DNA of 64,000 nucleotides from Betaproteobacteria bacterium (GCA_023259135.1 JAHFQX010000007.1:7529-71528); one strand, 5' to 3'; counted from the first letter of the stretch, positions 2,777 through 50,023 are shown. A program made the numbers and translations. The notes: generated by a model not told the origin, from the letters alone.

Positions 2777-3129
2777 TCGGGGACGGCGCCCATCTTCAGG
2801 AGGGCGGGAAGGGACTGGAGTTCGGGGTGAAATATCGAGGAAAGCCGGAGCGGGCTTTTGCCATTCGGCACCGGGGTCGGGTCTACGCTTATCTTAATCG
2901 TTGCGCCCACCGGCCCATGAATCTGGATTGGCGCCCTGGTGAATTCTTCGATATTTCCGGGTTATACTTGATCTGCGCCACCCACGGAGCCCTTTATGCC
3001 CCGGACACGGGACGCTGCATCGGCGGCCCTTGCCAGGGGAGAAAATTGATTTATGTCCCGGTGCAAGAACAAGATGGAAAAATTTTCCTGCTGCCCAACC
3101 CCGATTTTCTGATGGCCGACTCGCAATAA
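2755..3129 (+). CDS. Small Rieske [2Fe-2S] domain protein
   Basis: Track ORF 2674..3129; first ATG is 2755 (22-nt overlap with the HAD gene). Rieske ligand boxes CAHRP (C-x-H) and CATHGALY (C-x-x-H), followed by GRCIGGPC. Confidence 0.7.
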   Translation: MAANPRLIGDGAHLQEGGKGLEFGVKYRGKPERAFAIRHRGRVYAYLNRCAHRPMNLDWRPGEFFDISGLYLICATHGALYAPDTGRCIGGPCQGRKLIYVPVQEQDGKIFLLPNPDFLMADSQ

Positions 3130-4079
3130 TGGAATCTCCTCAACCCGAAGAACAACAGTGGGAACGCCGATTGCTGGAAAAGCTGGCCACCTCCGCCTTG
3201 GAGGAGCAGCGCAAAGCCCGGCATTGGGGAATTTTCTTTAAGTCCCTGACTTTAATTTATTTTTTTGCTTTGTTGTTTTTGACCCTGGGGTGGTTGAATT
3301 GGAAGGAAGTCCCAATCCCTGGAAAACATACGGCGTTGGTGGAACTCACCGGGATCATCGCTTCTGACGGCGCTGCCAGCGCCGATCAAATCAACCTGGG
3401 GCTTCAGGAGGCTTTTAAGGACAAAAACACTCAGGCGGTGGTCCTGCGCATCAACAGCCCAGGGGGCAGCCCTGTCCAGGCAGGCTATATCAACGATGAG
3501 ATCCGCCGATTGCGTGGCTTGCATCCGAATATCCCGCTGTACGCCGTAGTGGAGGACGTCTGCGCTTCCGGCGGCTATTACGTTGCTGCCGCCGCCGACA
3601 AGATTTTCGTGGATAAAGCCAGCATGGTGGGGTCCATTGGGGTGCTGATGGACGGCTTTGGGTTTGTCGGGGCCATGGAAAAACTGGGTATCGAACGACG
3701 TCTGCTCACCGCTGGAGAAAACAAGGGATTCCTCGACCCCTTCGGGCCCTTGGCTCCGGCCCAAAAAGCCTACGCCGAGCAGATGCTCCGAGATATTCAC
3801 CAGCAGTTTATCCAAGTGGTCCGCCAAGGGCGCGGCAACCGCCTCAAAGAGACTCCGGACACATTCAGCGGCCTGATCTGGACCGGCGAAAAGAGCATTG
3901 AACTCGGCCTTGCCGATGCCTTGGGGAGCGTGGATTACGTTGCTCGGGAGGTGGTGAAGGCCAAGGATATCGTGGATTTCACTCCACGGGAGAATCTCGC
4001 GGAACGCTTTGCCAAGCGCCTAGGGGCAGGAGTTGCCGAGAGTCTGTTGCGATTCTCTGGCGTCGGGACATTGCGTTAG
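3129..4079 (+). CDS. S49-family signal peptide peptidase (SppA 36K type / SohB-like)
   Basis: Track ORF 3030..4079 trimmed to ATG 3129 (overlaps the Rieske stop by 1 nt). N-terminal TM segment IFFKSLTLIYFFALLFLTLGWL, then S49 motifs INSPGGS, CASGGYYVAAAADKIF, MVGSIGV. Confidence 0.8.
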   Translation: MESPQPEEQQWERRLLEKLATSALEEQRKARHWGIFFKSLTLIYFFALLFLTLGWLNWKEVPIPGKHTALVELTGIIASDGAASADQINLGLQEAFKDKNTQAVVLRINSPGGSPVQAGYINDEIRRLRGLHPNIPLYAVVEDVCASGGYYVAAAADKIFVDKASMVGSIGVLMDGFGFVGAMEKLGIERRLLTAGENKGFLDPFGPLAPAQKAYAEQMLRDIHQQFIQVVRQGRGNRLKETPDTFSGLIWTGEKSIELGLADALGSVDYVAREVVKAKDIVDFTPRENLAERFAKRLGAGVAESLLRFSGVGTLR

Positions 4080-14576: not shown

Positions 14577-15353
14577 ATGAGCCCCTTGGTCGATTCTCAC
14601 TGCCACCTGGATTTTCCTGAGCTCGCATCCCGTTTGCCGGAAGTCATGGCAGGCATGGCCCGGCAGGGGGTGGGCTACACCTTGTGCGTAGGAGTCACGA
14701 TGTCTCATTTTCCTAGAGTGCTTGAAGTGGCGAGAATCCACCCTCATGTATTCGCTTCCGTAGGGGTGCATCCGGATCATCAAGAAGAACAAGAACCCTC
14801 CATTGGCTGCTTGGTGGAATCGGCCGGTCATCCGAAGGTGGTGGCCATCGGCGAAACCGGACTGGATTACTTCCGTCTCAGGGGGGATATGGCGTGGCAA
14901 AAAGAACGTTTTCGGACCCACATTCGGGCGGCGCGAGAATGCGGCAAGCCCCTTATTGTTCATTGCCGGGAAGCGGCTGCCGATACCCTGGACATCCTGG
15001 AACAGGAAAATGCCCGCGAAGTGGGGGGGGTGATGCACTGCTTCACTGAAAGTTGGGAAACAGCCCAACGAGCCATGGAGTTAAGCTTCTATATTTCCTT
15101 TTCCGGCATCGTCACCTTCAAGAACGCCGCCGCGGTGAAAGAGGTCGCCAAGCTCGTCCCAGCCGAGCGGCTGCTGGTGGAAACGGATTCCCCCTACCTG
15201 GCGCCGACACCCCATCGCGGGAAAACCAATGAACCAGCCTACGTGCGCCATGTGGCGGAAGAGATTGGGCGCCTGCGCGGGATTCCGCTGGAAGAAGTGG
15301 CTGAAACGACCACCCGGAATTTTTTCCAATTGTTCACCGTAGCCCACCCATGA
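14577..15353 (+). CDS. TatD-family metal-dependent hydrolase (YcfH-like)
   Basis: Track ORF 14514..15353 trimmed to ATG 14577 (MSPLVDSHCHLDF). AIGETGLDY, LIVHCREA, GVMHCF, ETDSPYLAP. Confidence 0.85.
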   Translation: MSPLVDSHCHLDFPELASRLPEVMAGMARQGVGYTLCVGVTMSHFPRVLEVARIHPHVFASVGVHPDHQEEQEPSIGCLVESAGHPKVVAIGETGLDYFRLRGDMAWQKERFRTHIRAARECGKPLIVHCREAAADTLDILEQENAREVGGVMHCFTESWETAQRAMELSFYISFSGIVTFKNAAAVKEVAKLVPAERLLVETDSPYLAPTPHRGKTNEPAYVRHVAEEIGRLRGIPLEEVAETTTRNFFQLFTVAHP

Positions 15354-16006
15354 CGCCCCAAGTCTTGCGCCATTCTTGGGGGTTATTATTGGCGGCGCTG
15401 CTGACAGCCTTGGTAACAGTCCCCGGTTGGGCGGAATCCTACGACGATATCCTGCAAGCAGTTAAGGTCGGGGATATCGCCACCGCGACACAACTGCTGC
15501 GGAGCGGTATGGATATCAATACCGTTGATGCGGATGGCAATACCCTGTTGATCCTTGCTTGCCGGGAGCAAAATTGGGCAGTAGCAAAGGCCCTGCTGGG
15601 GTTTCGACCCAAACTGGACAGCCGCAACCGGTATGGCGAAACAGCCCTGATGCTAGCAGCTGCCAAGGGGTCGGTAGATCTGGTGGAAACCTTACTGGAG
15701 CGGGGAGCCGCTCTAAACCATCCGGGCTGGACCGCACTGAGTTACGCCGCCTGGGCAGGTCAAACTGGGATTGTTCGGCTACTGCTGCAACGGGGTGCCA
15801 TGATCAATGCCGAATCCGACAATAGCACCACCCCCCTCATGATGGCCGTCCGGGGAGGTCATCTGGAAACCGTGTTGATTCTGCTGGAATTCGGTGCAGA
15901 CATTAACCACAAAAATAGCTCCGGCGGCAGCGCCTTAGGGTGGGCCATCGACACGGGCAACACGGACATCGCCGAACTTCTGATTCGAGCCGGCGCAGAG
16001 GAATAA
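15350..16006 (+). CDS. Secreted ankyrin-repeat protein
   Basis: 218 aa. Signal-peptide-like N-terminus LLLAALLTALVTVPGWA, then about five ankyrin repeats (DADGNTLLILAC, NRYGETALMLAAAKGSVDLVETLLERGA, GWTALSYAAWAGQTGIVRLLLQRGA, TTPLMMAVRGGHLETVLILLEFGADIN, GGSALGWAIDTGNTDIAELLIRAGA). Confidence 0.8.
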   Translation: MTPQVLRHSWGLLLAALLTALVTVPGWAESYDDILQAVKVGDIATATQLLRSGMDINTVDADGNTLLILACREQNWAVAKALLGFRPKLDSRNRYGETALMLAAAKGSVDLVETLLERGAALNHPGWTALSYAAWAGQTGIVRLLLQRGAMINAESDNSTTPLMMAVRGGHLETVLILLEFGADINHKNSSGGSALGWAIDTGNTDIAELLIRAGAEE

Positions 16007-16312
16007 TCCTCGGCCACTCGTCGCTCAAGGCTCTTGTGATTATCACGACTAACCTGATCTGGAATAGACCCGCCCGTCCCGGTCTGATGGATATTTTGTC
16101 TCCTGGGCCGGCTGGCCAGCAAATGTTGAGTCGTGCCGCCACCTCCGCCGGCGTAAGCCCAAGGTATATTTCCGTCAGGCTTTCATGGGTAATGTGCCGT
16201 CCACCGTGGCTAAATTTAACATAATATACATTATGCGTACTCTTCGAGCGCTTTCGCACTTGCTCGCGGCGCACGGGCTCGGCGCGGCGCGGCGCAGTCC
16301 GAGGCGGATTGA

Positions 16313-16548
16313 TTCCTCGATCCGGAGAACCTGCTCGCGCCCCTGCAAGCGGCCTCCTGCATCTACCGCATCGCGTTCGGGCCGCGGGCCGGGCGCAAAG
16401 TGCTGAGCTGGCGATACGCCGCGCGGCGTGCGGCGCCTTAGCGCGCATGAGTTGGGCGCGCTTGCTCAAGCGGGTGTTCGACATCGATATCGAACGCTAC
16501 CCGTAGTGCGGCGGCAAGATGAAGGTCATCGCGGCGATCGCCACGGAC
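16313..16548 (+). pseudogene. IS91-family (Y2, rolling-circle) transposase, middle and C-terminal fragments
   Basis: Own translation. One frame reads FLDPENLLAPLQAASCIYRIAFGPRAGRKVLS (16313 onward). A second frame reads ARMSWARLLKRVFDIDIERYP-stop(TAG 16504-16506)-CGGKMKVIAAI. Both strings match conserved mid and C-terminal blocks of IS91/ISCR transposases as I know them. Frames are broken and most of the gene is missing. Confidence 0.6.
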
Positions 16549-16655
16549 GCCGGCGCGGCGCGTGGAACTTTTTCAGGCGGCTTGATACACGAACGCGGAG
16601 CCGACGGGGGGGCTCGGCGTGCGCTCGTGCCCGAGTGCGGATTGCGGGAAAGCGG
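16549..16655. repeat. Left copy of ~110-bp direct repeat (tail following the IS91 fragments)
   Basis: gccggcgcggcgcgtggaactttttcaggcggcttgatacacgaacgcggagccgacggggggggctcggcgtgcgctcgtgcccgagtgcggattgcgggaaagcgg. Recurs at 21086..21200 in the same orientation with a few substitutions and one ~8-nt indel. Contains GC-rich hairpin-forming segments (gagcc...ggctc, ctcgg...ccgag). Confidence 0.85.
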
Positions 16656-16878
16656 ACGCAGCGAAGGGCGAGATTCTGCAGACAACAGCGGAACTTGCGT
16701 GAATTGTCACGCGATTGATGCCATCATGGGCGGAGGGATAGAGTGTCCCTGTGCGGAAAATTATGTTTAAAGTTCCTATGCCCAGCCGGCTCTAGGCAAC
16801 GCCACGAGAATGGCGGCGAACGGCGGAGCGGCGGGACTGATTATTTCAACGAGGCCCGACCCCATCGATCAAACACCA

Positions 16879-17886
16879 TCAGGCAATCGCCCTCGCCTGC
16901 GGACGGTTGATCGCGCCCTGAGGGGTCTCGCCGCGCAGCGCCTGGAGGATGCTGTGCGCCGCCTCAAGTTCGATATCGAGTCGCACCGCATCCACCGCCG
17001 AGCCGATGTGCGGCGTGAACAGAGTGCGCGCCCTGTCGTCGAGTAGCGCCTGCGGGATCGCGCGCGGCCGGTCGGGGCGCGCCCATTCTTCCATCTCGAA
17101 CACATCGGCGGCGTAGCCAGCCAACCGGCCGGAAGCGAGCGCCGCGACCACCGCCTGTTCGTCGACAACCGAGCCGCGGCAGGTGTTGATGAGGAAGGCG
17201 CCCGGTTTCATCTGTGTGAGCGCGCCGGCGTCGATCAGGTGCAGAGTCGCGCCGCAGTACGGAACCAACGGCACCACGAAGTTGCTCGCAGCGAGCAGCG
17301 CCGCCAGATCCATACGCTCAAGGTTCCAGCGCGTTTCCTTCTCCTTCGGCAGCCCCACCGGATCGGAATACAGCACGCGCATTCCGAAGCCCGCCAGACG
17401 TTGGGCGACGGCCTGGCCGACCGCGCCCATGCCGATTATGCCCAGCGTGTTGCCGGCAAGGCCGGCACCGTAGAGCACCGGGCGCCAACCGTTGAACTGG
17501 CCGCTGCGCACAAAGCGGTCGCCGGCCGGCACGTTGCGCGTCAGGCCGATCAGCAGGCCGATGGTCAGTTCCGCGGTCGGGATGGTGAGCAGATCCTGGA
17601 CAATGGTGACCCAAACGCCGCGACGGGTACACGCATCGACATCGTAGTTGTCATAGCCTTTGAGTGCGCAGGCGACCACGCGCAGTTGCGGGCAGGCGCG
17701 CAGGAATGCTTCGTCTACGCTGTCCGGCATGAAGGTCATGATGGCGGCGGCGGCCCGCGCCCGTCGCAGTATCTCTTCGGGCGCCAGAGTCTCGGGGCTG
17801 GCGTTGGGGATAACTTCGCCGTACCCAGCCAGCAGCGCAATGACCTCGGGGTGCACGCGATGAGTGAGGACGATTTTCGGTTTCAT
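16879..17886 (-). CDS. ptxD: Phosphite dehydrogenase (NAD-dependent phosphite:NAD+ oxidoreductase; D-2-hydroxyacid dehydrogenase family)
   Basis: 335 aa. NAD site [16 protein letters not shown]; catalytic Arg/Glu/His contexts [33 protein letters not shown]. The N-terminus [19 protein letters not shown] and overall string follow Pseudomonas stutzeri PtxD as I recall it. Last gene after a PhnCDE-type transporter, which is the ptxABCD layout. Confidence 0.8.
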
Positions 17887-17903
17887 CCGGCGTTGCTCCG
17901 GTC

Positions 17904-18710
17904 CTATTTGAATCGTTTTCTCAGCATGCCGCTGAAGGCATCCACCAGCGTCACCATTGCCAGAATCACCAGCAGCAACGCCGAGACTTCCTGGTACTGC
18001 ATAATGCGCAGCGAGCCCATCAACTCGAAACCGATGCCGCCGGCGCCGACCATGCCCATCACGGTCGAGGCGCGGAAGTTGTACTCCCAGCGGTAAATGG
18101 AGATGTCCGCCATCTGCGGCAGCACCTGCGGCAGGACACCATGCAGGACCACCTGCAGCGGCGTGCCGCCAGCGGCGCGCGCCGCCTCGATCGGCGCTTC
18201 GTCAGTGTGCTCGATGGCCTCGGCGAAGAATTTTCCGACCATGCCGATCGAGTGCAGGCCGAGCGCCAGCACCCCGGGCAAGGCGCCGAAACCGACCGCC
18301 GCGACGAAGATGATGCCCAGGATCAGTTCCGGCACGGAGCGCAAGCCGTTCAAAATCCCACGTGCCACCTGATAGACGGCCGGGTGCGGTGTGGTGTTGC
18401 GTGCCGCCAAGAACGCGAGTGGCACCGATAACGCCACCGCCAGCGCCGTGCCGGCCACACTCATGGCAAGCGTGTCGAACAGCGGCTTGATCCAGCCGCG
18501 CCAGCCGCCGAAATCAGGCGGCAGCATCTCGCTCAGCAGGCTGAACAGGCTCGGCACGCCCTCCGCCAGGCGCGCGCCGTCGAACAGCCCGACATAATAA
18601 GCGCACACCAGGATGACGGAGAACACCGCGGCAAGCCGCAGCGCATCGCGATTCCAGGCACTCTGCTCAGCGCTAAGTAACTGGTCGTAGTTCTGAAATG
18701 GGGTCGTCAT
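17904..18710 (-). CDS. ptxC: Phosphite/phosphonate ABC transporter permease (PhnE family)
   Basis: Track ORF 17904..18773 trimmed to ATG 18710 ([12 protein letters not shown]), 8 nt after the ptxB stop. Multi-TM; PhnE-type EAA-like loop [24 protein letters not shown]. Confidence 0.75.
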
Positions 18711-18717
18711 CCGTCGT

Positions 18718-20396
<1,679 letters not shown>

Positions 20397-20514
20397 TCGC
20401 CTCCTGGACACCGGGATTACGATTCGATTTCACGATCAATCACGGGATTGGTTCGAGTAAATCCGATCAGCAAGCGGATTGGGTAAGCACCGCCGGGCAT
20501 GATGCGCTCACTTT

Positions 20515-20532
20515 GTGACGGTTTGATGAAGT
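20515..20532 (-). promoter_or_regulatory. Candidate Pho box upstream of ptxA (weak)
   Basis: Minus strand reads ACTTCAT-CAAA-CCGTCAC: two 7-mers with 11-bp periodicity and an A-rich spacer, against consensus CTGTCAT-AAAA-CTGTCAC (4/7 and 6/7 matches). Lies about 120 nt upstream of the ptxA ATG. Confidence 0.25.
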
Positions 20533-20622
20533 CGATATCCAAAAAATGATGGCCAGCTTGAGCAGGCGGGTGTGTCGCAAGATCAATGTCTTACGCTGGT
20601 CAGGCCTGGTTATCGACAGATC

Positions 20623-20705
20623 GTAGGGCGCATTAGCCGCAAGCGTAATGCGCCGAACAAAATCACATCCGGCGCAATGCGCTGCGCTTATTGCGCCCCG
20701 TCACG
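20623..20705. repeat. REP-like hairpin doublet (REPIN-like)
   Basis: GTAGG-GCGCATTA-gccgcaagcg-TAATGCGCC (9-bp perfect stem) at 20623..20654 and GGCGCAAT-gcgctgcgctt-ATTGCGCC-ccgtcac (8-bp perfect stem) at 20671..20705. Read in reverse, the second resembles the first, so the pair is inverted. The GTAG head is typical of REP elements. Track ORFs 20572.. and 20648.. read through it (VGRISRKRNAP...), which is typical REP pseudo-coding. Confidence 0.5.
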
Positions 20706-20721
20706 CCGTTTCCGGCAGGCC

Positions 20722-21085
20722 ATGGAATATAGCCCACTGCCGCGCTGCGGCGATCCGAGCTTGCCCCAATTCGTCAAAGACGAGTTCGATGCGTTTCTCG
20801 AATGTGGCATCCTTGCCCACGACGTCCTGTGGGTGCGCTGCGCCGGGTGCGGCCACGAGAAGCTGGTGGCGTTTTCCTGCAAGCGGCGTGGCATTTGCCC
20901 CTCGTGCGGGGCACGCCGCATGGCGGAGAGCCCCGCCTGGCTGGTTGATCGAATTATCTCCAAGGGGCCAGTGCGCCAATGGGTGCTCTCGTTCCCGATC
21001 CCGCTGCCCGGTATTGCAGATCATCCACCGGGTGATTGCGACGCATCTCATCAGGCAGGCGGGCGTCAAACCCAGTGAAGCGGCC
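20722..21085 (+). pseudogene. IS91-family (Y2) transposase, N-terminal fragments incl. zinc-binding domain
   Basis: Track ORF 20572..21078 contains LPQFVKDEFDAFLECGILAHDVLWVRCAGCGHEKLVAFSCKRRGICPSCGARRMAESPAWLVD...VRQWVLSFPIPL (IS91 zinc-binding N-terminal domain). After a frame change, ORF 20648..21295 continues IIHRVIATHLIRQAGV. The gene then breaks off into the repeat tail. The extreme N-terminus and the whole catalytic Y2 domain are absent. Confidence 0.65.
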
Positions 21086-21200
21086 GCCGGCCGCGGCGCG
21101 TGGAACTTTTTCAGGCGGCTTGATACGCGAACGCGGAGCCGATGGGAGGGCTCGGCGTGCGCTCGTGCCCGAGTGGGCGAGTGGGATTGCGGGAAAACGG
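21086..21200. repeat. Right copy of ~110-bp direct repeat
   Basis: gccggccgcggcgcgtggaactttttcaggcggcttgatacgcgaacgcggagccgatgggagggctcggcgtgcgctcgtgcccgagtgggcgagtgggattgcgggaaaacgg. Same orientation as 16549..16655. Homology ends at ...gcgggaaa(a/g)cgg in both copies. Confidence 0.85.
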
Positions 21201-21646
21201 CTCCGGTAGCGGAGGGGATATCCGGAATCACCGGTGGGCGTATGAACTCCATTGCCGCCAGGGTCGCATTTGGGGCGCTCGCAAGCATCCCCTGACCCAG
21301 AAATGGTAGATTCACCCCCCGGCCAAGTTGCTACCTCGATGAAGCGCCACCGGCGATCCGATCAACGCAAGCCTTTTTGCCCTACCGGCTATGCATTGCC
21401 GGGGGACGCCTGGCGGGGCTGGACGATCCACGGGGACACCTCGCGGTCCCCCGAGGGCAAACCCTTCAGGGCTCACGAAATGGCTTGGCTGAGCCTGACT
21501 TTCGCCATGGCCCGCAATTGGCGATGCGGCTACGAGGAGCGATTCCAGGCCGCCCTGCTATCCGGGTCCCGTCCACGGCGCCCCGGCGGATGCCGTGGAA
21601 CGTCTCCGGCGGCCGCTGGTGGCCATCAAGGGGGCAGGGTTGTCTT

Positions 21647-21916
21647 TCAGGTGGTGGTGGCGGTGAGTTCCAGGCGTCGCTCGATACGCTCCAGGGGTTT
21701 TTCGTGGTGGTCGAGCCGCTGGTGGATGTTGGCGATGTCCCCATGAATCAAAGCCAGATCGCGGCGCAAGCCCGCCGTATGTTCCTCGATGGAACTGACC
21801 CGGAGTTTCAGGTCATTGAAGCCTTCGTGCATCTCTGCCCGAAGCGTCAGGACATCGTTCCTGAGGTTGCGCAGGTGTTCGAGGATCAGGTTTTCGGTGT
21901 TCTCGGCCATGCTCAT
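21647..21916 (-). CDS. Small coiled-coil protein of unknown function
   Basis: Track ORF 21647..22015 trimmed to ATG 21916 (AGGAAAG ribosome-binding site upstream). MSMAENTENLILEHLRNLRNDVLTLRAEMHEGFNDLKLRVSSIEEHTAGLRRDLALIHGDIANIHQRLDHHEKPLERIERRLEL has a heptad-like pattern throughout. The opposite-strand ORF 21377..22018 looks like its shadow. Confidence 0.5.
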   Translation of the reverse strand: MSMAENTENLILEHLRNLRNDVLTLRAEMHEGFNDLKLRVSSIEEHTAGLRRDLALIHGDIANIHQRLDHHEKPLERIERRLELTATTT

Positions 21917-22039
21917 TCTTTCCTGTGGGTGGATTCTATCATGCTCCCGATTCGTAAGAAAAAAGGGGGTACGGGTATTGGCCTTTTGCCATTCGCACGT
22001 CCTGGGACTGCCCAATGAAGGGAGGTGTGAATGTTCGAT

Positions 22040-22429
22040 TTAGGGCAATTGAAGGCAACGAATCGTATAGACTCCCATCCCAGCCATGACCAGCGAGCCG
22101 AGCACATGAGCGGTCGCGTGAAATCCGGCCCAGGCGTATTCCTGGCGCAGGAGCAAGGATAGCGATTCGGCCGAGAAAGCCGAAAAAGTGGTCAGTCCGC
22201 CGAGAAAACCGGGAATCAAAAATGCTGTTAATTCAGGGGGTATGGCAGGATGGCGCAGGATGTATTCCATCCCTACCCCAATCAAAAAAGCGCCGCCGAG
22301 GTTGGCAAACCAAGTTCCCAAGGGAAAATTCGGCAACACCGGATTCAGCAACACGCCGAGGGCAAAACGCAGGCAAGCCCCAAGCGCAGCTCCCACGGCC
22401 ACGGCTAACCAGGCGTAAGCAGAAGGCAA
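22040..22429 (-). CDS. crcB: Fluoride ion channel CrcB/FluC
   Basis: 129 aa, four TM segments. GAALGACLRF, GTWFANLGGAFLIG, FLGGLTTFSAFS are CrcB hallmarks. The start codon is TTG at 22429 (no nearby ATG). Confidence 0.85.
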   Translation of the reverse strand: MPSAYAWLAVAVGAALGACLRFALGVLLNPVLPNFPLGTWFANLGGAFLIGVGMEYILRHPAIPPELTAFLIPGFLGGLTTFSAFSAESLSLLLRQEYAWAGFHATAHVLGSLVMAGMGVYTIRCLQLP

Positions 22430-31271: not shown

Positions 31272-32041
31272 TCCGGCCGCGAGCCGCTACGGGCGCATGG
31301 ATCCTGGCAGTAGAATGCTTTGAGTTGGGCGTAAAGAGCCGGGTAATTTGTCTTGACCGTGTTGGGAACTTCAAAAAAAGCCTCGGTCAGCACCGCAAAG
31401 AACTCCGCCGGACTTTCTCCGGCATAAGGGTCGATGGGGGTCTGTTCTCCCCGTTCCACTTGACGGCACAGCTTTTCGTAAGCGTCGTGAAATTCCTTGG
31501 TCCAGCGCTGTTGGCTCATTCCCCGCCGCAAAGGGGGAAAACCGTCGGCATCGCCATTGAGCATGTCCAGCTTGTGGGCAAATTCGTGCAGCACCACGTT
31601 GAAGCCCCCTCCACTCTCCCCTGCCGGTCCCCAGGCCAGAATCACCGGTCCTCCCAGCCAGGCTTCCCCCGAGAGAGGTTCCCGGCTGATATGAACAATG
31701 CCGGAGTCGTCGATATATTCCCGTTCGGGGACGAACTCCTCGGGATAGACGATGATTTCACTCCATCCGCGGTAGCAGTCGAAATCCAGGTTGAGGATCA
31801 GCAGACAGGCTCGGGCCGCGATGTCTAGCCGCATGGCGTCCGTGACGACCAAACCGCCGGCGCCGCTGAAATGCTTGTCTTGCAGGAACAGCGTCGCCCA
31901 GTCCCGCAAGCGCTGCAGTTCCCGGGAAGAAAGTCCGTGAAGCAGCGGGGTGGCGGCCAGCATAGCCTGCCACAGGGCATCCTCGATGGGGTGGAGTGTA
32001 AGGATGCGGCCGCGTCGCCAGGCCTTAAAGCTCCACACCGC
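31268..32041 (-). CDS. mtfA: MtfA-like M90 zinc peptidase
   Basis: Track ORF 31268..32086 begins at TTG. GTG at 32041 gives an N-terminus (M)[10 protein letters not shown]...[13 protein letters not shown] that parallels E. coli MtfA; an ATG at 31963 is a further option. Zinc site [11 protein letters not shown], and [11 protein letters not shown]. Confidence 0.7.
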
Positions 32042-34496
32042 GGGAACGCCTTCTGGAGAGCGCGGCGGATTCTTGTGCCGGGCCAAACACCAAGAATTTC
32101 ACTTCCTGGTAATGCTTGACGAAGTGGACAGAGAGACCTTTCCGAACGTATCCCGGCAAGAGATCGAAGTCCCGTCGATTGGCCTCGGGGAGAATCAGCT
32201 TCATGATGCCGGCGCGTCGGGCCGCCACCACTTTCTCGCGGATGCCCCCCACCGGCAATACCTCACCCGTGAGGGACAGTTCCCCCGACATCGCCAGGGA
32301 CCGCCGTAGCGCCTGATTCCGGGCTAGAGACAGCAATCCGGTAGCCATGGTGATCCCCGCGCTGGGACCATCCTTGGGCGTGGCGCCTTCGGGAACGTGC
32401 AGATGGACGAAGGCTTCGTCAAAGAAAGCCGTCGGCGCTCCGAACTCCTTGAGATGGGCGCAGATATAGCTATAGGCAATCTCCGCCGATTCCCGCATGA
32501 CCTCTCCGAGCTTGCCGGTGAGCTTGAAGCCACGGTTCTTGGTATGCACCAAACCGGCCTCCACGCTCAAAATCACCCCGCCCAAGGGCGTCCATGCCAG
32601 CCCGGTGGCTACCCCCACCCCTTTGAGCGGCTGTTCCCGGGTGAAAATCGGTTTGCCTAGGTATTCCTCCACTTCCTGGGGGCCAATCCGCAATGGCCGG
32701 GTTTCCCCTTCCACGATCCGCACCGCCGCCTTGCGCACGATGCGGCCCACTTGCTTTTCCAGACCCCGCACTCCGGCTTCCCGCGCATAACCCTCAATGA
32801 GCCGCCGCAACGCCGGAGTGCTGAAGCTCAATTGCCCCTTCTCCACCCCGCTACGCTCCAGGAAACGGGGCACCAGATGGCGTTTGGCGATCTCGACTTT
32901 TTCCTCGGAGATATAGCCGGGCAGCCGGATGATCTCCATCCGGTCCAGCAGCGCGCCAGGAATCGTGTCCAACTGGTTGGCGGTGCAGACGAACAGCACT
33001 TTGGACAGATCGAAGCGCACATCCAGATAATGATCCAGAAAATCGCTGCTCTGCTCCGGATCCAGGGCCTCCAGCAAAGCTGAGGCGGGATCGCCCTGGT
33101 AAGAGGCGCCGATCTTGTCCACTTCGTCCAGCATGATCACCGGGTTGGCGGTCCCAGCATCCTTGATGGCCTGGATAAACTTGCCCGGCATGGCGCCGAT
33201 GTAAGTGCGGCGGTGGCCCTTGATCTCGGCTTCATCCCGCATGCCCCCCACCGAAAAACGGAAGAACCGGCGGCTGAGGGTGGCGGCTATGGAACGGCCG
33301 ATGGAGGTTTTTCCCACCCCCGGCGGACCCACCAGCAGGATGATGGAACCGGATACGGCCCCTTTTAGCTTCCCCACCGCCAAAAATTCAATAATCCGTT
33401 CCTTGACGTCCTGCAAGCCGTAATGTTCCTCATCCAGCACCTTGCGGGCCTGCCGCAAATCCAATTTATCCTCGGAATGTTTTCCCCAGGGAAGCTGGGT
33501 GAGCCAATCCAGGTAATTGCGGGTGACCGCGTATTCCGGAGAGCCCACCTCCAAAAGAGAGAGTTTTTGCATTTCCTCATCGATCCGCTTCGCGGCGCCC
33601 TCCGGCAGCGATAGCGCGGCGATCCGTTCCCGGAAGCGTTCCAGGTCGGCGGTGCGGTCGTCCTTGGCAATGCCCAGTTCCTTTTGAATCGCCTTCAACT
33701 GTTCCCGCAGAAAGAAATCCCGCTGCTGCTTCTCGATTTTTTCTCCGACCTGCTGGCGAATCTGGAACTGGAGCTTGGCCACGTCGAGTTCTTTCTTGAT
33801 CAGCACCAGCACCTTCTCCATGCGCCGCCGCAGATTGAAGGCTTCCAGCACGCCTTGCAGGTCTTCCTTGGAGGAGGTGGTCAGGCTGGCGGCGAAATCC
33901 GCCAGCAAGGAAGGCTGGTTGGGACTGAAGCGATTCAGGAAAAACTTCAGTTCCTCGCTATACAAGGAGTTAAGCGGGATCAGCTCCTTGATGGTGTTGA
34001 TAATGGCAACCGCATAGGCTTTGATTTCATCGGTGGCTTGGGATCGCCGATCCACAGGATATTCCACCCGGGCCACGTAGGGGGCGCTGTCGCTTATCCA
34101 TTCGGAGACGCGAAATCGGGTCACCCCCTCGGCGATGAATTGCAACTTCCCATCGGTCTGCATGGGATGATGCATTCGGACCACAGTCCCCACCAGATAA
34201 AAATCCTCGGGCCGAGCCTGCTCCGGCCGCTCCGATTTGGCCAATACCAGCCCGACCATCCGGTGCGGGGTGGTGCCGACCTGTTCCAAGGTCGCCATCC
34301 ACGGATTTTCGTTCATCAGCAAAGGTAGTGTCTGCGCGGGGAAGAACGGCCGCTCCGTGAGCGGTAGCAAGTGGAGGGTCGTGGGAAGCGGCGGCAAGGG
34401 CGCGGGCAACCCTGCCTGGGAAGCGGAATCACTGCCCCCCCCCTCCAGTACTTCGCCTTCCATCGGGTCAGGCTGTTGAGCGGATTCGGAAATCAT
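32025..34496 (-). CDS. lon: ATP-dependent Lon protease
   Basis: 823 aa. LON N-domain LPLTERPFFP, Walker A GPPGVGKTS, Walker B IMLDEVDK, protease Ser PKDGPSAGI. Has about 45 extra acidic/Pro-rich residues at the N-terminus. Confidence 0.9.
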   Translation of the reverse strand: MISESAQQPDPMEGEVLEGGGSDSASQAGLPAPLPPLPTTLHLLPLTERPFFPAQTLPLLMNENPWMATLEQVGTTPHRMVGLVLAKSERPEQARPEDFYLVGTVVRMHHPMQTDGKLQFIAEGVTRFRVSEWISDSAPYVARVEYPVDRRSQATDEIKAYAVAIINTIKELIPLNSLYSEELKFFLNRFSPNQPSLLADFAASLTTSSKEDLQGVLEAFNLRRRMEKVLVLIKKELDVAKLQFQIRQQVGEKIEKQQRDFFLREQLKAIQKELGIAKDDRTADLERFRERIAALSLPEGAAKRIDEEMQKLSLLEVGSPEYAVTRNYLDWLTQLPWGKHSEDKLDLRQARKVLDEEHYGLQDVKERIIEFLAVGKLKGAVSGSIILLVGPPGVGKTSIGRSIAATLSRRFFRFSVGGMRDEAEIKGHRRTYIGAMPGKFIQAIKDAGTANPVIMLDEVDKIGASYQGDPASALLEALDPEQSSDFLDHYLDVRFDLSKVLFVCTANQLDTIPGALLDRMEIIRLPGYISEEKVEIAKRHLVPRFLERSGVEKGQLSFSTPALRRLIEGYAREAGVRGLEKQVGRIVRKAAVRIVEGETRPLRIGPQEVEEYLGKPIFTREQPLKGVGVATGLAWTPLGGVILSVEAGLVHTKNRGFKLTGKLGEVMRESAEIAYSYICAHLKEFGAPTAFFDEAFVHLHVPEGATPKDGPSAGITMATGLLSLARNQALRRSLAMSGELSLTGEVLPVGGIREKVVAARRAGIMKLILPEANRRDFDLLPGYVRKGLSVHFVKHYQEVKFLVFGPAQESAALSRRRSRGVEL

Positions 34497-34537
34497 CGGA
34501 AAGGATCTTTAGCGCGATTGAGTCAGCAGCGAATGGT

Positions 34538-34567
34538 ATGTGGGGATGGATGGGCTGCATTGCAAGG
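34538..34567 (-). promoter_or_regulatory. Sigma32 (heat-shock)-like promoter for lon
   Basis: Minus strand reads CCCTTGCAA-tgcagcccatccat-CCCCACATA against consensus CCCTTGAAA-N13-15-CCCCATNTA (one mismatch in each box, 14-nt spacer). The -10 box ends about 40 nt upstream of the lon ATG (34496). Confidence 0.45.
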
Positions 34568-34581
34568 GCGGTTACCCGTAA

Positions 34582-35784
34582 CTACCCGTAAGCCAAGCCC
34601 ACGACTTCCCGAACGTCCCGCATGGTCTCGGCAGCCAGCTTGCGGGCTTTTTCGCAGCCGTCCATGACAATATCCCGCAGCAGGGTGGGATCTTTCAGGT
34701 ACTGCTCGGCCCGCTCCCGGATGGGGATTTGCTCTTTGAGTACCGCCTCGATGACCGGCTGCTTGCATTCCAGGCAGCCGATGCTGGCGCTTTTGCAGCC
34801 CTGTTGAACCCATGCGCGGCGGGCCGGATCCGAATACACCAGATGTAGCGGCCAAACCGGACATTTTTCCGGGTCTCCCGGATCGGAGCGCCGCACCCGG
34901 GCTGGATCCGTCGGCATGGTGCGGATCTTGCGCTCGACGCTGGCCGGGTCTTCCCGAAGGGTGATCGTGTTGTCATAGGATTTGGACATTTTCTGGCCGT
35001 CTAGGCCAGGCATGCGGGAGGACTCGGTCAGCAAGGCCTGGGGCTCCACCAGGATTTTCTTGCCGCCGCCTTCCAGATAGCCGAACAGCCGCTCGCGGTC
35101 TCCCAAGCTTAAATTCTGAACTTCTTCCAGCAACGCCCGCCCCGCCGCCAAGGCCTCCGCATTCCCCCGCTCTTGATAGCCAGTGCGCAACTGACGATAC
35201 AGCCGAGCTTTTTTGCTGCCCAGCTTTTTGACGGCCGATTCAGCTTTTTCCTCGAATCCAGGTTCTTTGCCGTAGATATGGTTGAAGCGGCGGGCCAACT
35301 CGCGGGTAAATTCCACATGGGCCACCTGATCCTCGCCCACCGGCACCATATTGGCGCGATAAATTAGGATATCCGCGCTTTGCAGCAGGGGGTAACCCAA
35401 GAAGCCATAGGTTCCGAGATCCCGGTCGGAGAGCTTTTCCTGCTGATCCTTGTAGGTCGGGATACGCTCGAGCCAGCCCAGGGGGGTGATCATGGACAGC
35501 AGCAAATGCAGTTCGGCGTGCTCCGGAACCCGCGACTGAATAAACAACGTGGCCTGAGAGGGATCGATACCCGCCGCCAGCCAATCCACCAACATCTCCC
35601 AGGTGCTTTGCTCGATCACTTCGGCCGTGCCGTAATGGGTCGTCAGGGCATGCCAATCGGCGACAAAAAACAAGCAGGGGTGCTCATGCTGCAAAGTGAG
35701 CCAATTCTTCAGCACGCCGTGGTAATGACCCAAATGCATGGCCCCGGTGGGCCGCATGCCGGACAGGACTCGATCCTGATACAT
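34582..35784 (-). CDS. trpS: Tryptophan--tRNA ligase (long form with Cys-rich insert)
   Basis: 400 aa. HIGH-type MHLGHYHG, KMSKS, GEDQVAHVEFTRELARRFN. Contains a four-Cys motif (see findings). Confidence 0.9.
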   Translation of the reverse strand: MYQDRVLSGMRPTGAMHLGHYHGVLKNWLTLQHEHPCLFFVADWHALTTHYGTAEVIEQSTWEMLVDWLAAGIDPSQATLFIQSRVPEHAELHLLLSMITPLGWLERIPTYKDQQEKLSDRDLGTYGFLGYPLLQSADILIYRANMVPVGEDQVAHVEFTRELARRFNHIYGKEPGFEEKAESAVKKLGSKKARLYRQLRTGYQERGNAEALAAGRALLEEVQNLSLGDRERLFGYLEGGGKKILVEPQALLTESSRMPGLDGQKMSKSYDNTITLREDPASVERKIRTMPTDPARVRRSDPGDPEKCPVWPLHLVYSDPARRAWVQQGCKSASIGCLECKQPVIEAVLKEQIPIRERAEQYLKDPTLLRDIVMDGCEKARKLAAETMRDVREVVGLAYG

Positions 35785-35798
35785 ATCGCACTCCGCGG

Positions 35799-36458
35799 TT
35801 ATATGCCGAATAGCCAGGATATGAGGCTAATGACGAGCATAATGAAGGGAAAAATCAGGCTGCCCAGCGCCCCGCTGAACAATAGCAGCAACAAAATCAT
35901 CATTCCGTAAGGCTCCACCCGAGCGAAGCGATGGGCCAATCGCGGCGGCAACAGGCTGATGGCCATGCGCCCCCCGTCCAGGGGAGGCAACGGAAATAAA
36001 TTGAGCACCATGAGCACGGCGTTGATTTCCACTCCCGCCCGCCCCATCAAGGCGATGGGCAAATTGAAAGCGCTCTCCGGCATCAGGGTGGACAGCTTCA
36101 TCAGCGCTCCCCAACCCAGGGCCATGACGAAATTGGCACCCGGCCCGGCCCCCGCCACCCATAGCATGTCCCGCTTGGGACGCCGCAGATTGCCGAAGTT
36201 CACCGGCACCGGCTTGGCCCACCCAAACAGGATGCCACCGCCGAATAATTTGCTGAGGGCCAGCAACAGCGCCGGGACCAGCACCGTGCCCACCGGGTCG
36301 ATGTGCCGCAACGGGTTGAGGCTGATACGGCCGGCCAAATGGGCGGTGTAATCGCCGAAATGCCGGGCGGCGTAACCGTGGGCCGCTTCGTGCAGGGTGA
36401 TGGCAAAGATCACCGGCAACGCGTAAATGGCGATGTTTTGAATGAGGCTGTATTCCAT
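35799..36458 (-). CDS. Site-2 protease family (M50) membrane metalloprotease
   Basis: 219 aa, multi-TM. HExxH site LHEAAHGYAA, second motif NLFPLPPLDGG. Confidence 0.8.
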   Translation of the reverse strand: MEYSLIQNIAIYALPVIFAITLHEAAHGYAARHFGDYTAHLAGRISLNPLRHIDPVGTVLVPALLLALSKLFGGGILFGWAKPVPVNFGNLRRPKRDMLWVAGAGPGANFVMALGWGALMKLSTLMPESAFNLPIALMGRAGVEINAVLMVLNLFPLPPLDGGRMAISLLPPRLAHRFARVEPYGMMILLLLLFSGALGSLIFPFIMLVISLISWLFGI

Positions 36459-36478
36459 GGAGGCGGGCTCGGTTTCGG

Positions 36479-37102
36479 TTAAAGGCCCAGACGAGCCGGG
36501 TCCCCCTTTCCCAGACGCACTATTTCCGGGGTATCCCCTTCGAAAGCGATCACGGTCGTCATTTCCAAACCGCCCACCCCGGCATCCAGAATCAAATCGA
36601 GGCTATGCTCCAATTGCTCCCGGATTTCCAGAGGATTGGTCAGAGGACGCTCCGCTGCCGGCAAAATCAAGGAAGCGCTCAGCAACGGCTCGCCCAGTTC
36701 GACCAGCAGGCTTTGCACCACGGGATGATCGGGGATCCGCAGGCCGATGGTATTGCGCTTGGGATGTTGCACTCGCCGGGGCACTTCCCGGCTGGCCTCC
36801 AAAATGAAGGTATAACAGCCCGGGGTGGCGGCTTTGAGAAGCCGGTACTGGGGGTTGGTAACCCGCGCATAGCGGGACACGTCGGACAAATTGCAGCAGA
36901 GCAAGGTCAAGAGATGCCGGGCATCCAGTCCGCGAATCGCCCGGATGCGCTCCACCGCTTGCTTGTCGTCCAAGTGGCAACCCAAGGCATAGCAAGAATC
37001 GGTGGGATAGGCGATGATTCCACCGTCCCGCACCATGTTTACGGCTTGGCGGATCAGTCGCGGCTGGGGGTTTTGCGGATGCACCGAGAAGAATTGAGCC
37101 AT
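36479..37102 (-). CDS. yciO: YciO (Sua5/YciO/YrdC family) protein
   Basis: Track ORF 36479..37207 trimmed to ATG 37102. MAQFFSVHPQNPQPRLIRQAVNMVRDGGIIAYPTDSCYALGC...PGCYTFILEASREVPRR...IGLRIP runs parallel to E. coli YciO nearly residue by residue, as I recall that sequence. Confidence 0.85.
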   Translation of the reverse strand: MAQFFSVHPQNPQPRLIRQAVNMVRDGGIIAYPTDSCYALGCHLDDKQAVERIRAIRGLDARHLLTLLCCNLSDVSRYARVTNPQYRLLKAATPGCYTFILEASREVPRRVQHPKRNTIGLRIPDHPVVQSLLVELGEPLLSASLILPAAERPLTNPLEIREQLEHSLDLILDAGVGGLEMTTVIAFEGDTPEIVRLGKGDPARLGL

Positions 37103-37229
37103 ATTGGATATCAGAATGGCCGCCGCATCCCAGGCACGGCGGGAATGGCTGAATGGAGGCGGGATGAATTGGATTCGGACATGGCGGGTTTGAAATCCCC
37201 ATGGCAATCATAGCAAAATACCCCATCCC

Positions 37230-38060
37230 ATGAAAAATTCAGTCTTCCCCGGCGCAGCGGAGCGGATCCCCTTCCCCCCCTCCCCCGCCTCAGCGCAGCC
37301 GGACGCGGCTCCTGCCATTCGGGTGGCGGGATTGAGAAAGCGCTTCAAAAACGTGACTGCGTTGGAAAAGGTCTCCTTCGACATTCCCGCCAACAGCATC
37401 TGCGCCTTGCTCGGGGGCAATGGCGCGGGCAAGACCACCACCCTGTCGATTCTGCTGGGCCTGCTGTTGCCGGACAGCGGCACGGTTTCCATGTTGGGGG
37501 AGGATATGCTGCGGCATCGTTATCGGGTATTGCCTCGGATGAATTTCACCTCCCCTTACGTTGATTTGCCCAAGCGCTTGACGGTATGGGAGAACCTGAT
37601 GGTTTACGGCCGCTTGTACGGCCTGTCCAGACCGCAAAAACGCATCCGGGAATTGGCCGAGGAGATGGAGTTCGGCGACCTGCTGGAGCGCCCCTACGGC
37701 ATGTTGTCGGCGGGCCAGAGAAGCCGCACGGCCCTAGCCAAATCGCTCCTGAATCAACCGGACGTTCTGATTCTGGACGAGCCGACCGCTTCCCTGGACC
37801 CCGACATGGGCGACCGGATTCGCGCCATCCTGGAAAACTACCGCGCCCGCAGCGGCGCCACCCTGCTGCTGGCTTCCCACAACATGCCGGAAGTGGAGCG
37901 GCTATGCGACCAAGTCATCATGATGCAGCGCGGCCGCATTGTGGCCCAAGGTTCCCCCGCTGCGCTGATCGCCGCCCACGGCCGAGCCAGCATGGAAGAA
38001 GTGTTTCTCGACGTGGCCCGGGCCCCGGCTCCCGCTTCCGCCAAAAAGGCCGCCGGATGA
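37230..38060 (+). CDS. ABC transporter ATP-binding protein (ABC-2 exporter type)
   Basis: 276 aa. Walker A GGNGAGKTT, signature LSAGQRSRTALAKSL, Walker B LILDEPT. Confidence 0.85.
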   Translation: MKNSVFPGAAERIPFPPSPASAQPDAAPAIRVAGLRKRFKNVTALEKVSFDIPANSICALLGGNGAGKTTTLSILLGLLLPDSGTVSMLGEDMLRHRYRVLPRMNFTSPYVDLPKRLTVWENLMVYGRLYGLSRPQKRIRELAEEMEFGDLLERPYGMLSAGQRSRTALAKSLLNQPDVLILDEPTASLDPDMGDRIRAILENYRARSGATLLLASHNMPEVERLCDQVIMMQRGRIVAQGSPAALIAAHGRASMEEVFLDVARAPAPASAKKAAG

Positions 38061-38863
38061 GCGGCTGGAGCCTTGCGCTGCTACGGATTTACGCTTTGGT
38101 CACCCGCCATGCCTACCTGATGCGCAAGTCATGGCCGCGATTGTTGGAACTCGCTTACTGGCCCTCGATGCAGATGATCCTGTGGGGCTTCATCAGCCAA
38201 TTTTTCTCCATCCATAGCTCCTGGGTCGCCCAAGCGCCAGGCATGCTGATTGGCGCGGTGCTGCTGTGGGATATTCTGTTTCGCGGGCAACTGGGGGTGT
38301 CTCTGGCCTTCTTCGAGGAAATGTATTCCCGCAACCTGGGCCATCTGTTCGCCAGCCCGCTGCGCCCCCCGGAAATGATCGTCGCCATGCTGGCCATCAG
38401 CACCTTGCGCACCTTGATCGGCGTGGGAGGCGCCGCTTTGCTGGCCATCCCCCTCTATCATTATTCGCTGTTCAAGCTGGGATTGCCGCTGCTGGCCTTC
38501 TTCATCAATCTTATCGTGATGGGCTGGGCCATCGGGCTGATGGTGTCCGCCTTGGTCATGCGTTTCGGGCTGGGGGCCGAGGGCTTTGCCTGGGCAGCCA
38601 TTTTCGCGGTAGCCCCGGTCAGCGGAGTGTATTACCCGGTGAGCGCCCTACCCTCCTGGTTGCAGCCGGTGGCCGCCGCCCTGCCCGCCAGTCACGTGTT
38701 CGAGGGCATGCGGGCCGTGATGATCGAAGGCATTTTCCGGATGGATTTGCTGGCCAACGCCGTCCTGCTCAATCTGCTCTACCTGTCGGCGGGAGTCGCG
38801 GTATTCCTGTGGACCTTTCGGCGCGCCCGTCAGCTCGGGCTGCTGCTGCAAATCGGAGAATAA
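38057..38863 (+). CDS. ABC-2 type transporter permease
   Basis: Frame of track ORF 37586..38863 trimmed to ATG 38057 (ATGA overlap with the ATPase stop). MSGWSLALLRIYALVTRHAYLMRKSWPRL, followed by six hydrophobic segments. Confidence 0.75.
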   Translation: MSGWSLALLRIYALVTRHAYLMRKSWPRLLELAYWPSMQMILWGFISQFFSIHSSWVAQAPGMLIGAVLLWDILFRGQLGVSLAFFEEMYSRNLGHLFASPLRPPEMIVAMLAISTLRTLIGVGGAALLAIPLYHYSLFKLGLPLLAFFINLIVMGWAIGLMVSALVMRFGLGAEGFAWAAIFAVAPVSGVYYPVSALPSWLQPVAAALPASHVFEGMRAVMIEGIFRMDLLANAVLLNLLYLSAGVAVFLWTFRRARQLGLLLQIGE

Positions 38864-38930
38864 AACCCCTTATCGTTCCATGGGGGAGTAAAATTTTCAC
38901 TCCCGTTCAGGATACGAAAACACCGCGAAA

Positions 38931-39974: not shown

Positions 39975-40041
39975 ACCCAAGGCATGGGTTGCCATTACTA
40001 CGTCTATCGAATGTTTCACCGAAATACTTTGAATCCCAGCC

Positions 40042-40812: not shown

Positions 40813-40831
40813 CCCACCGGAGCGGACGGAT

Positions 40832-41698: not shown

Positions 41699-41834
41699 GT
41701 AGAATTCCTGGCAATTTCAAAGGGCCGAGCCGCGCTAAGGGGCCTGGGATCGAGGTTCTCACTCTGCCTTGACGGCCTTAAGCGCCAGTGGGGACGAATC
41801 CAGGTACTGGCTCGAAATCATTTCAGGGAGATAG

Positions 41835-44708: not shown

Positions 44709-44720
44709 AGGAGTTCGATC

Positions 44721-45593: not shown

Positions 45594-45713
45594 TCTGATG
45601 ACAGGCCGGAATCGCCGGCCCTTGTCGAATGCTATTATCCCACTCAGACGTCCGGTTTCGGGCGGCATTCATAAATATCCCCCGTTGCGGAGTATTGCTC
45701 TGTTGCCCAATTC

Positions 45714-46466: not shown

Positions 46467-46521
46467 CGTATAATCCGCGCCTCCGCCGCCGTGGCGGACC
46501 TCTTTTCCTCCCTATTCGCCG

Positions 46522-47310: not shown

Positions 47311-47357
47311 GCTTCATTCATTTTCCGCGCCGCTATGGAAAAGGTATCCTTGCGGGG

Positions 47358-49100: not shown

Positions 49101-49145
49101 CTTAAGGCCGAGAGAAAAGGTCCAAGCCATTAAGGAGGATTAACC

Positions 49146-49989: not shown

Positions 49990-50023
49990 CCCAAAATAAT
50001 CCGCTCATTCAAAGGAAAACCCG

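Follow-up and report, generated by a model that had tools for sequence, protein, structure and literature searches.

The DNA under study is a stretch of 64,000 nucleotides from a Betaproteobacteria bacterium (GCA_023259135.1, JAHFQX010000007.1:7529-71528), called the window in the following. Positions 16244-21943, 5,700 bp in total, form a segment that carries the phosphite genes ptxABCD and is missing from two closely related contigs. With a probability of roughly 85% this segment is a horizontally acquired chromosomal island with an assimilatory phosphite system, whose history would include a sandwich arrangement between two ISCR-like elements. An earlier interpretation drawn from the sequence alone, the sequence-only reading, had proposed the horizontal acquisition of a phosphite cassette, and the foreign composition, the outlying tetranucleotide usage and the empty site in conspecific strains all spoke for it. 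The ISCR-like remnants, a 52-bp phoX remnant, orf87 and a DUF3653 gene had not been mentioned there. The cassette and its native flank comprise the following features:

16782-16878, minus strand: native 3' flank of ptxD, common to the metagenomic locus L085 (blastn)
16879-17886, minus strand: ptxD, NAD-dependent phosphite dehydrogenase, 335 amino acids (PDB search; Pfam 2-Hacid_dh and 2-Hacid_dh_C)
17904-18710 (open reading frame extendable to 18773), minus strand: ptxC, ABC permease, 268 amino acids (TIGR01097 PhnE; Pfam BPD_transp_1)
18718-19584, minus strand: ptxB, periplasmic phosphite-binding protein, 288 amino acids (PDB search; signal peptide, then AP)
19587-20393, minus strand: ptxA, ABC ATPase, 268 amino acids (TIGR02315; Pfam ABC_tran; GGAGG ribosome-binding site upstream)

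The predicted set of four tightly packed minus-strand genes was found with all open reading frames (ORFs) intact, adjacent and co-oriented in the order A-B-C-D, identical to the gene order of Pseudomonas stutzeri WM88 with which it had been compared. The signal peptide expected for the binding protein was present in ptxB, as were all protein motifs that had been quoted.

The limits of the island were obtained by comparing occupied and empty-site contigs. Conspecific contigs from independent assemblies were retrieved by exact-sequence look-up of window proteins. In L095 (Logan assembly) and L101 (NCBI assembly GCA_040960315.1) window position 21944 was fused directly to 16243, with flanks ~99.2% identical to the window. 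The expectation that the segment would not be syntenic in all relatives was borne out, since exactly this segment was missing from both contigs. At the left junction host ...gcgtactct was followed by island tcgagcgc..., at the right junction island ...ggattctatcatg was followed by host ctcccgattcg. Of the edges estimated before at ~16.24 and ~21.65 kb, the left one was correct within a few bases, while the right one fell ~300 bp short of the true end at 21943. Comparison of the empty with the occupied site revealed no target-site duplication, and a repeat search together with this comparison yielded no repeats at the island ends. Occupied junctions recurred independently in L081, L082/L093, L096, L097, L098 and L108, with strain-level differences, and only two empty-site contigs were recovered versus many occupied ones. 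Across five core genes the window diverged by 0.42% from the island-bearing strain L082 and by 0.81% from the empty-site strain L095, with 0.79% between L082 and L095. The island-bearing strains are sister lineages, which is consistent with a single gain after the L095 lineage had split off.

The base composition of the island was clearly distinct, as had been anticipated. Sliding G+C content was 62-66% over 16.0-22.0 kb versus 55-58% on either side, and the delimited island reached 63.4% versus 57.3% and 57.1% for the 10-kb flanks. Not one of 469 equally sized segments elsewhere in the 64 kb had a G+C content of at least 63.4% (maximum 62.6%). The tetranucleotide L1 distance of the island from the rest of the window was 0.310, compared to 0.133 +/- 0.019 (maximum 0.183) for other segments, which places the island ~9 standard deviations away. 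The G+C content at third codon positions (GC3) was 0.79-0.83 for the ptx genes versus 0.57-0.68 for the neighboring core genes, so that the description of these positions as almost all G or C was overstated. Stretches at 32-41, 44-52 and 57-64 kb also showed 60-67% G+C and GC3 values up to 0.81; they contain lon, a class I aminoacyl-tRNA synthetase gene, clpB and phaC and have host-like tetranucleotide usage. As housekeeping stretches are equally G+C-rich, G+C content alone is not conclusive for a foreign origin. In this genome the base composition differs from region to region, core genes included. Housekeeping GC3 amounted to 0.70-0.81 in 32000-41700, 44700-52600 and 57200-64000 (lon, the aminoacyl-tRNA synthetase gene, clpB, phaC and others).

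Two remnants of IS91-family transposase genes, both on the plus strand and thus in direct orientation, bracket the ptx cassette. They and the adjoining phoX remnant are located as follows:

16244-16781, plus strand: left ISCR-like remnant (blastn to L103, translations)
16544-16655, plus strand: left direct repeat, last ~12 transposase codons and downstream sequence (repeat search, blastn)
20697-20752, minus strand: phoX remnant, last 52 bp including the stop codon, 93% identical to L085 3099-3153
20753-21258, plus strand: right ISCR-like remnant (Pfam Zn_Tnp_IS91, E 1.3e-14; NCBIfam ISCR_clade_Ia, positions 54-139 of 509)
21081-21200, plus strand: right direct repeat, ISCR 3' end (repeat search; 21092-21200 as detected)

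The left remnant starts in the middle of the gene at codon ~230 and contains two internal deletions and in-frame stops, as seen in its translations ...LDPENLLAPLQAASCIYRIAFGPRAGRKVL..., ...ARMSWARLLKRVFDIDIERYP*CGGKMKVIAAI... and ...PARRVELFQAA* (asterisks mark stops). Its stop codon (16583-16585) is followed by ~200 bp of non-coding DNA, which end in the terminus GTTTAAAGTTCCTATGC (16765-16781). This terminus resembles the 3' region GTTTGGAATTTCCTATCGG of L103, a near-full-length ISCR-like relative, and is termed oriIS-like by this resemblance. Homology to L085 begins at 16782, the base right after the terminus and 97 bp beyond ptxD. The right remnant retains transposase codons ~46-169, the Zn-binding domain, with a 35-bp deletion; a further deletion of ~920 bp joins these codons to the last ~12 codons (stop 21121-21123) and the 3' region, with a degenerate oriIS-like end at ~21238-21256. 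At 20753-20755 it adjoins the phoX stub. The two direct repeats are 96% identical. Of the HUH/Y2 core, the right copy has lost everything and the left copy retains only parts; neither gene is intact. L103 is 91% identical to the right remnant in the N-terminal domain, which is ~63% identical to that of ISCR2/ISVsa3. Full-length relatives scored 325+118 and 401 bits against the ISCR_clade_Ia profile, under its cut-off of 925. Since the family assignment comes from profiles only, with scores under the cut-off, the element is called ISCR-like. In strain L082 the right remnant has 35 bp more of the transposase gene, forming a 231-amino-acid ORF. Decay thus affects the mobile-element parts of the island, while its ptx genes are preserved.

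A search for related loci pointed to a likely type of donor. PtxD homologues are abundant. The closest named ones, from metagenome-assembled genomes (MAGs) of Thiobacillus and Sulfurimicrobium, showed 79-81% identity, and their loci carry ptxE 3 bp after ptxD. The closest locus overall was L085, an unbinned JGI metagenome contig with a PtxD 94% identical to ours; window 16782-20536 matched L085 3160-6925 with 93% nucleotide identity (blastn). In L085, positions 3099-3153 are the 3' end of a PF05787 PhoX alkaline-phosphatase gene directly upstream of ptxA, ptxE is missing, and the flanks have 61-64% G+C, matching its ptx genes. The layout of L085, the phoX stub in the window and the matching G+C content argue for a donor-type arrangement phoX-ptxABCD without ptxE, probably in a genome of ~62-64% G+C. 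A further 80 metagenomic ptx loci were scanned for ptxE, ISCR, phoX, DUF3653 and orf87. In most of them ptxE follows ptxD; loci lacking it are those of the closest clade (L116, L117) and a few more (L122, L129), so the loss of ptxE predates the events seen at the island. In the window, the predicted absence of a ptxE-like regulator was confirmed by tblastn with a Thiobacillus-type PtxE query, which gave no match in the 64 kb. Neither ISCR, phoX, DUF3653 nor orf87 was found in the 80 loci, phoX being seen only in the separately retrieved L085.

From these findings the following course of events can be proposed. In the donor (~62-64% G+C) a phoX-ptxABCD cassette would have become sandwiched between two directly oriented ISCR-like copies, the oriIS end of one lying 97 bp past ptxD and the other truncating phoX. 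This unit, together with another ~0.7 kb of foreign DNA (DUF3653, orf87), would then have been inserted between the ankyrin-repeat gene ank and crcB without target duplication. Subsequent decay of both transposase genes would have fixed the island in place. An ISCR sandwich with two successive oriIS sites was described for ISCR28-sul4 (PMC12772301), and IS91-family insertions produce no target duplication (PMC13181058). The missing duplication suits IS91-family insertion and illegitimate recombination equally, and both may be regarded as candidate routes of entry into the chromosome. In the host, periplasmic phosphite would be bound by PtxB and imported by PtxC and PtxA at the expense of ATP, and PtxD would oxidize it to phosphate with NAD+, turning phosphite (P +3) into a phosphorus source. 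The native promoter ahead of ptxA would most likely drive expression, controlled by PhoB and the Pho regulon, without PtxE.

We are aware that a number of observations weigh against parts of this course of events. Both ISCR-like copies are 5'-truncated, the right one being without its first ~45 codons, neither contains a terIS, and an intact transposase is found in neither. Neither end of the island coincides with an ISCR end: on the left the island begins within a transposase gene, and on the right it extends ~690 bp past the right oriIS-like site. CCAG is found next to the oriIS-like ends and CTCC next to the right end of the island, which are not the IS91 targets GTTC/CTTG, a rule established for IS91, IS801 and IS1294 and not for ISCRs. 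None of the 80 metagenomic ptx loci contained an ISCR. An exact search of metagenome contigs did not find the oriIS/ptx junction either, so that mobility of this unit between genomes is hypothetical. Transposition of any ISCR element was never experimentally shown (PMC6218425). The polarity of the change, a gain and not a loss, is a matter of parsimony, and the host phoBR genes are not within the window.

The terIS-less copies, the ends of the island outside the ISCR ends, the junctions lacking GTTC/CTTG, the search without a second ISCR-bearing ptx locus and the missing experimental record of ISCR transposition (PMC6218425) also speak for a different history. In this alternative the ISCR remnants are incidental and contributed neither to the assembly of the ptx cassette nor to its transfer, while the island entered by transformation and illegitimate recombination, on a plasmid or with an integrative and conjugative element. 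We consider it a possible, if rather doubtful, explanation, because the native ptx flank starts at the very next base after the left oriIS-like terminus, phoX is cut short by the right copy adjoining it, and the two direct copies bracket exactly the cargo, as in the ISCR sandwiches described. ISCR-mediated capture of the cassette is the history that we infer. For a plasmid vehicle, the island was compared with PLSDB by megablast, and nothing above 74% identity was obtained. An integrase-driven, tRNA-targeted island flanked by att repeats was considered as well and rejected, as no island ORF contains an integrase domain, att repeats are missing, and the nearest tRNAs are located at 42.7 kb of the window.

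The island also varies within the species. Differences of 35 bp and 103 bp inside the island were seen among strains, and L100 carries an extra 217-bp deletion within it. Such ongoing deletions, the small number of empty-site contigs (two, versus many occupied ones) and an insertion unmarked by target duplication or att site might be taken to mean that the segment is ancestral to the species and that the L095/L101 lineage lost it by clean deletion. This is improbable. In composition the segment stands far apart from its surroundings, and besides transposase remnants it holds part of a phoX gene which is intact next to ptxA in another genome of matching G+C. It is without end repeats that could mediate a precise deletion, an 81-amino-acid ORF runs unbroken through the empty site, and the strains with the island are more closely related to each other than to the empty-site strain. 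Even if it had been lost in L095, the segment would still be foreign, with an earlier date of arrival.

The identity of the gene products was assessed against solved structures and protein family models. PtxD matched the PtxD of Ralstonia sp. 4506 (PDB 6ih2) with 494 bits (E 1.8e-147, 66% identity over 330 residues) and that of P. stutzeri with ~402 bits (E ~1e-119, 58% identity), compared to 197 bits (E 4e-57) for the best non-PtxD protein, a glyoxylate reductase. The proposed assignment of the dehydrogenase to the characterized PtxD proteins was hereby substantiated. The catalytic residues K76, R237, E266 and H293 (H292 in P. stutzeri) align, as do M53, W134 and Y139, and residues 175/176 are Asp-Pro. 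PtxB matched P. stutzeri PtxB (5o2j) with E 2.4e-110 and two cyanobacterial PtxB proteins with 1e-101 and 2e-95, versus only ~1e-17 for Escherichia coli PhnD and the hypophosphite binder HtxB. Its Y225 aligns with Y203 of P. stutzeri PtxB, the capping tyrosine that makes a P-H...pi contact (PMC5700983), and Y49 and Y94 are also kept. PtxC scored 299.8 bits with TIGR01097 PhnE (cut-off 216.7) and PtxA 295.8 bits with TIGR02315, the PhnC model (cut-off 266.1).

These matches of the ABC components to Phn models, and an NCBIfam search in which no PtxD-specific model matched PtxD and glyoxylate reductase came out on top, could suggest a glyoxylate/hydroxypyruvate reductase next to an organophosphonate transporter, hence a cassette unrelated to phosphite. 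This is very improbable, as the glyoxylate reductase match (226 bits, cut-off 455) and that of PtxB to the PhnD equivalog model (200 bits, cut-off 261) stay below their cut-offs, solved PtxD and PtxB proteins score ~300 bits over any alternative, the catalytic and capping residues are kept, and no C-P lyase or phosphonatase genes were found nearby among the window ORFs or in the domain scan. Dissimilatory phosphite oxidizers have PtxD as their core enzyme, too, and one ptx-ptd contig of this kind has an IS91-family transposase (bioRxiv 10.1101/2020.12.28.424620); an energy-yielding function of the cassette is nevertheless hardly credible, since the content of the island is completely assigned and includes no ptd gene of the dissimilatory pathway (ptdC/F/G/H/I), the ptxABCD layout with its ABC importer is of the assimilatory type, and the nearest characterized enzymes are assimilatory.

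The dN/dS values of the ptx genes versus L085 were 0.06-0.23. Between island-bearing strains dN was ~0 and dS 0.014-0.035, with a dS of 0.013-0.020 for flanking core genes. These values indicate purifying selection on all four ptx genes. Judged by its genes, the cassette would provide assimilatory uptake and oxidation of phosphite, and the host is predicted to use phosphite.

An assembly or binning chimera, for which the repeats at 16.5 and 21.1 kb that could mislead an assembler and several short contigs ending nearby might be cited, can be dismissed, as the junctions and the whole interior were reproduced with strain differences in the independent assemblies named above, from different runs, which excludes an artefact.

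The region upstream of ptxA contains three features of possible regulatory or structural relevance:

20416-20441, minus strand: imperfect dyad in the ptxA leader, GATTGATCGTGAAATCGAATCGTAAT, candidate operator
20511-20532, minus strand: Pho-box-like tandem 11-bp units CTTCATCAAAC CGTCACAAAG, kept in L085
20537-20696, no strand assigned: REP-like insertion of 160 bp with two hairpins, a gap in the L085 alignment

Of 45 distinct sequences upstream of ptxA, most contained two to three GTCA(C/T) units with 11-bp spacing at this position. These units match the pattern of PhoB-binding Pho boxes, which suggests Pho control of the ptx genes. The ptx operon of P. stutzeri belongs to the Pho regulon, and ptxE is dispensable for its expression. 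Accordingly, the missing ptxE should not block expression, and ptxE can be regarded as an accessory and not a defining gene. A dyad of the approximate consensus TTGATTCG-N3-6-CGAATCAA recurred at the corresponding position of numerous divergent ptx loci (L085-L194), whose PtxA proteins are only 64-96% identical and which include ptxE-less operons. Located 3' of the ptxA promoter and 5' of the ribosome-binding site, it is compatible with a LysR-type T-N11-A box, for which the position would be unusual. The leader dyad is possibly a protein operator; less likely, but conceivable from its retention in ptxE-less operons, it may mark a so far unrecognized regulator of phosphite use. The REP-like element (GGCGCATTA-N10-TAATGCGCC and GGCGCAAT-N-ATTGCGCC) lies between the phoX remnant and the ptxA promoter region. 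L085 does not have this element, and its hairpin motif occurs nowhere else in the window. A weak match to the element was seen in a Ferrigenium MAG (L058). A promoter and terminator scan gave no more hits than in shuffled sequence, and an Rfam scan of 15.3-22.5 kb gave nothing meaningful.

Beyond the right oriIS-like site, ~690 bp of the island hold two further genes:

21339-21666, plus strand: DUF3653 gene (Pfam PF12375, E 1.5e-11 for the L082 version)
21647-21910, minus strand: orf87, intact gene for an 87-amino-acid coiled-coil protein, GC3 0.76, absent from the empty-site contigs

In the window a 2-bp indel shifts the reading frame of the DUF3653 gene near codon 80 (tblastn matches in two frames); in L082 the gene forms an intact 109-amino-acid ORF. 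Its product also belongs to phrog_2188, a family without assigned function, and no plasmid match was found for it. Homologues of orf87 of ~80 amino acids occur in varied, often transposase-rich contexts and were uninformative; no Pfam family exceeded its cut-off, and coiled-coil matches in Pfam and PHROGs were sub-threshold only.

Several known systems are similar to the island in part. With ptxABCDE of P. stutzeri WM88 it shares the A-B-C-D order on one strand, a PtxD with equal catalytic residues at 58% identity, the capping tyrosine of PtxB (E 2.4e-110) and Pho-box-like repeats upstream; in contrast, the island is without ptxE and without a neighboring htx operon, and residues 175/176 are Glu-Ala in P. 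stutzeri PtxD. D175/P176 is common to the window protein and Ralstonia sp. 4506 PtxD, its closest solved homologue (66%), which comes from a different host lineage, with the uncharacterized MAG (79-81%) and metagenome-contig (94%) proteins being much closer. In ISCR28-sul4, ISCR2-tet(X) and the ISCR1 complex class 1 integrons the cargo likewise lies directly downstream of an oriIS end, a second, truncated copy in the same orientation brackets it, and target duplications are missing. Unlike these resistance units, the island carries a nutrient-acquisition operon in the chromosome of an uncultured environmental betaproteobacterium, both of its copies are dead, and its transposase is only distantly related to the named ISCRs (~63% to ISCR2/ISVsa3 in the N-terminal domain). 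A contig of Ca. Smithella phosphorovis LM1 has a ptxD cluster with an IS91-family transposase and a G+C content above that of its host, which was read as horizontal transfer (bioRxiv 10.1101/2020.12.28.424620); that cluster is a dissimilatory ptx-ptd one, and neither an empty site nor ISCR anatomy was described. Acinetobacter plasmids (pCl107 and relatives) also carry ptx as mobile accessory DNA, but as plasmid-borne ptxABCDE modules including ptxE (PMC10117892).

As horizontal transfer of ptx genes and ISCR sandwiches were each already known, we regard the island as a fairly ordinary, well documented case of transfer and only modestly surprising. New is a chromosomal, ptxE-less ptxABCD between two dead ISCR-like elements for which an empty site is known as well as a donor-type locus. 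With the occupied site, the empty site, the donor-type locus and the decayed vehicle, the acquisition is documented at base-pair resolution, which is uncommon for uncultured bacteria. Phosphite use would broaden the phosphorus supply of the cell, as a trait that is strain-variable within one population, and the range of ISCR-like cargo would extend beyond antibiotic resistance, with no new mechanism being revealed. The gene ptxD is also widely used as a selection marker in biotechnology. The odds are about even that phosphorus-acquisition operons, too, are captured by ISCR-type elements and disseminated by them among uncultured environmental Betaproteobacteria, with the island as a fossil of this process that is still polymorphic. 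If true, this would depart from the picture of ISCRs as elements known almost only as carriers of antibiotic resistance.

The host genes on either side of the island are:

15350-16006, plus strand: ankyrin-repeat gene (left flank); tatD-ank is kept across Betaproteobacteria
22040-22429, minus strand: crcB (right flank)

The segment had been described as wedged between core genes. This holds by the conspecific empty site only, as the adjacency of ank and crcB is not conserved in the more distant relatives retrieved. In these, whose TatD is at most 69% identical, the order mltG-tmk-holB-tatD-ank is kept and crcB-folD-ftsB-eno is not adjacent to ank, which makes them uninformative on the insertion.

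The spacer between ank and crcB showed some peculiarities of its own. The 81-amino-acid ORF is uninterrupted across the empty site (L095:7142-7387) and is split by the island in the window into pieces at 21944-21991 and about 16040-16243 (minus strand). It has no Pfam or PHROG match. If it is a real gene, it was disrupted by the insertion; several amino-acid changes have arisen in what is left of it in the window. The spacer in this region differs by ~3% between strains, versus 0.8% for core genes. A palindromic motif, GTCGTGATAATCACGAC, located just 3' of the ankyrin gene (window 16020-16060), is duplicated in the empty-site strain (L095 tail). The tatD-ank contig L107 (sample SRR22388045) departs from the window after 16230, 13 bp before the island junction, and continues into AGAGTTTGAAGCAAGGATC up to the contig end (L107:11692-11709), a 19-mer that occurs nowhere in the window. 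It may represent a third allele or another insertion in the same spacer.

Other ptx loci were found in contact with mobile DNA or with different transporters. In a related ptxABCDE locus with a PtxD 82% identical (L086/L120, JGI Ga0255336_100502), a Y1 (IS200/RAYT-type) transposase gene lies within ptxA and an IS3-type element within ptxB, interrupting both genes, in surroundings with conjugative and defence genes (DUF932, LmuB, ParA, replication initiator). Operons for ptx appear to be often targets or passengers of mobile DNA. In L178-L182, L188, L191 and L194, ptxD-ptxE is preceded by a transporter in B-C-A order, whose proteins are only 23-43% identical to PtxABC of the window, an alternative transporter partnering PtxD.

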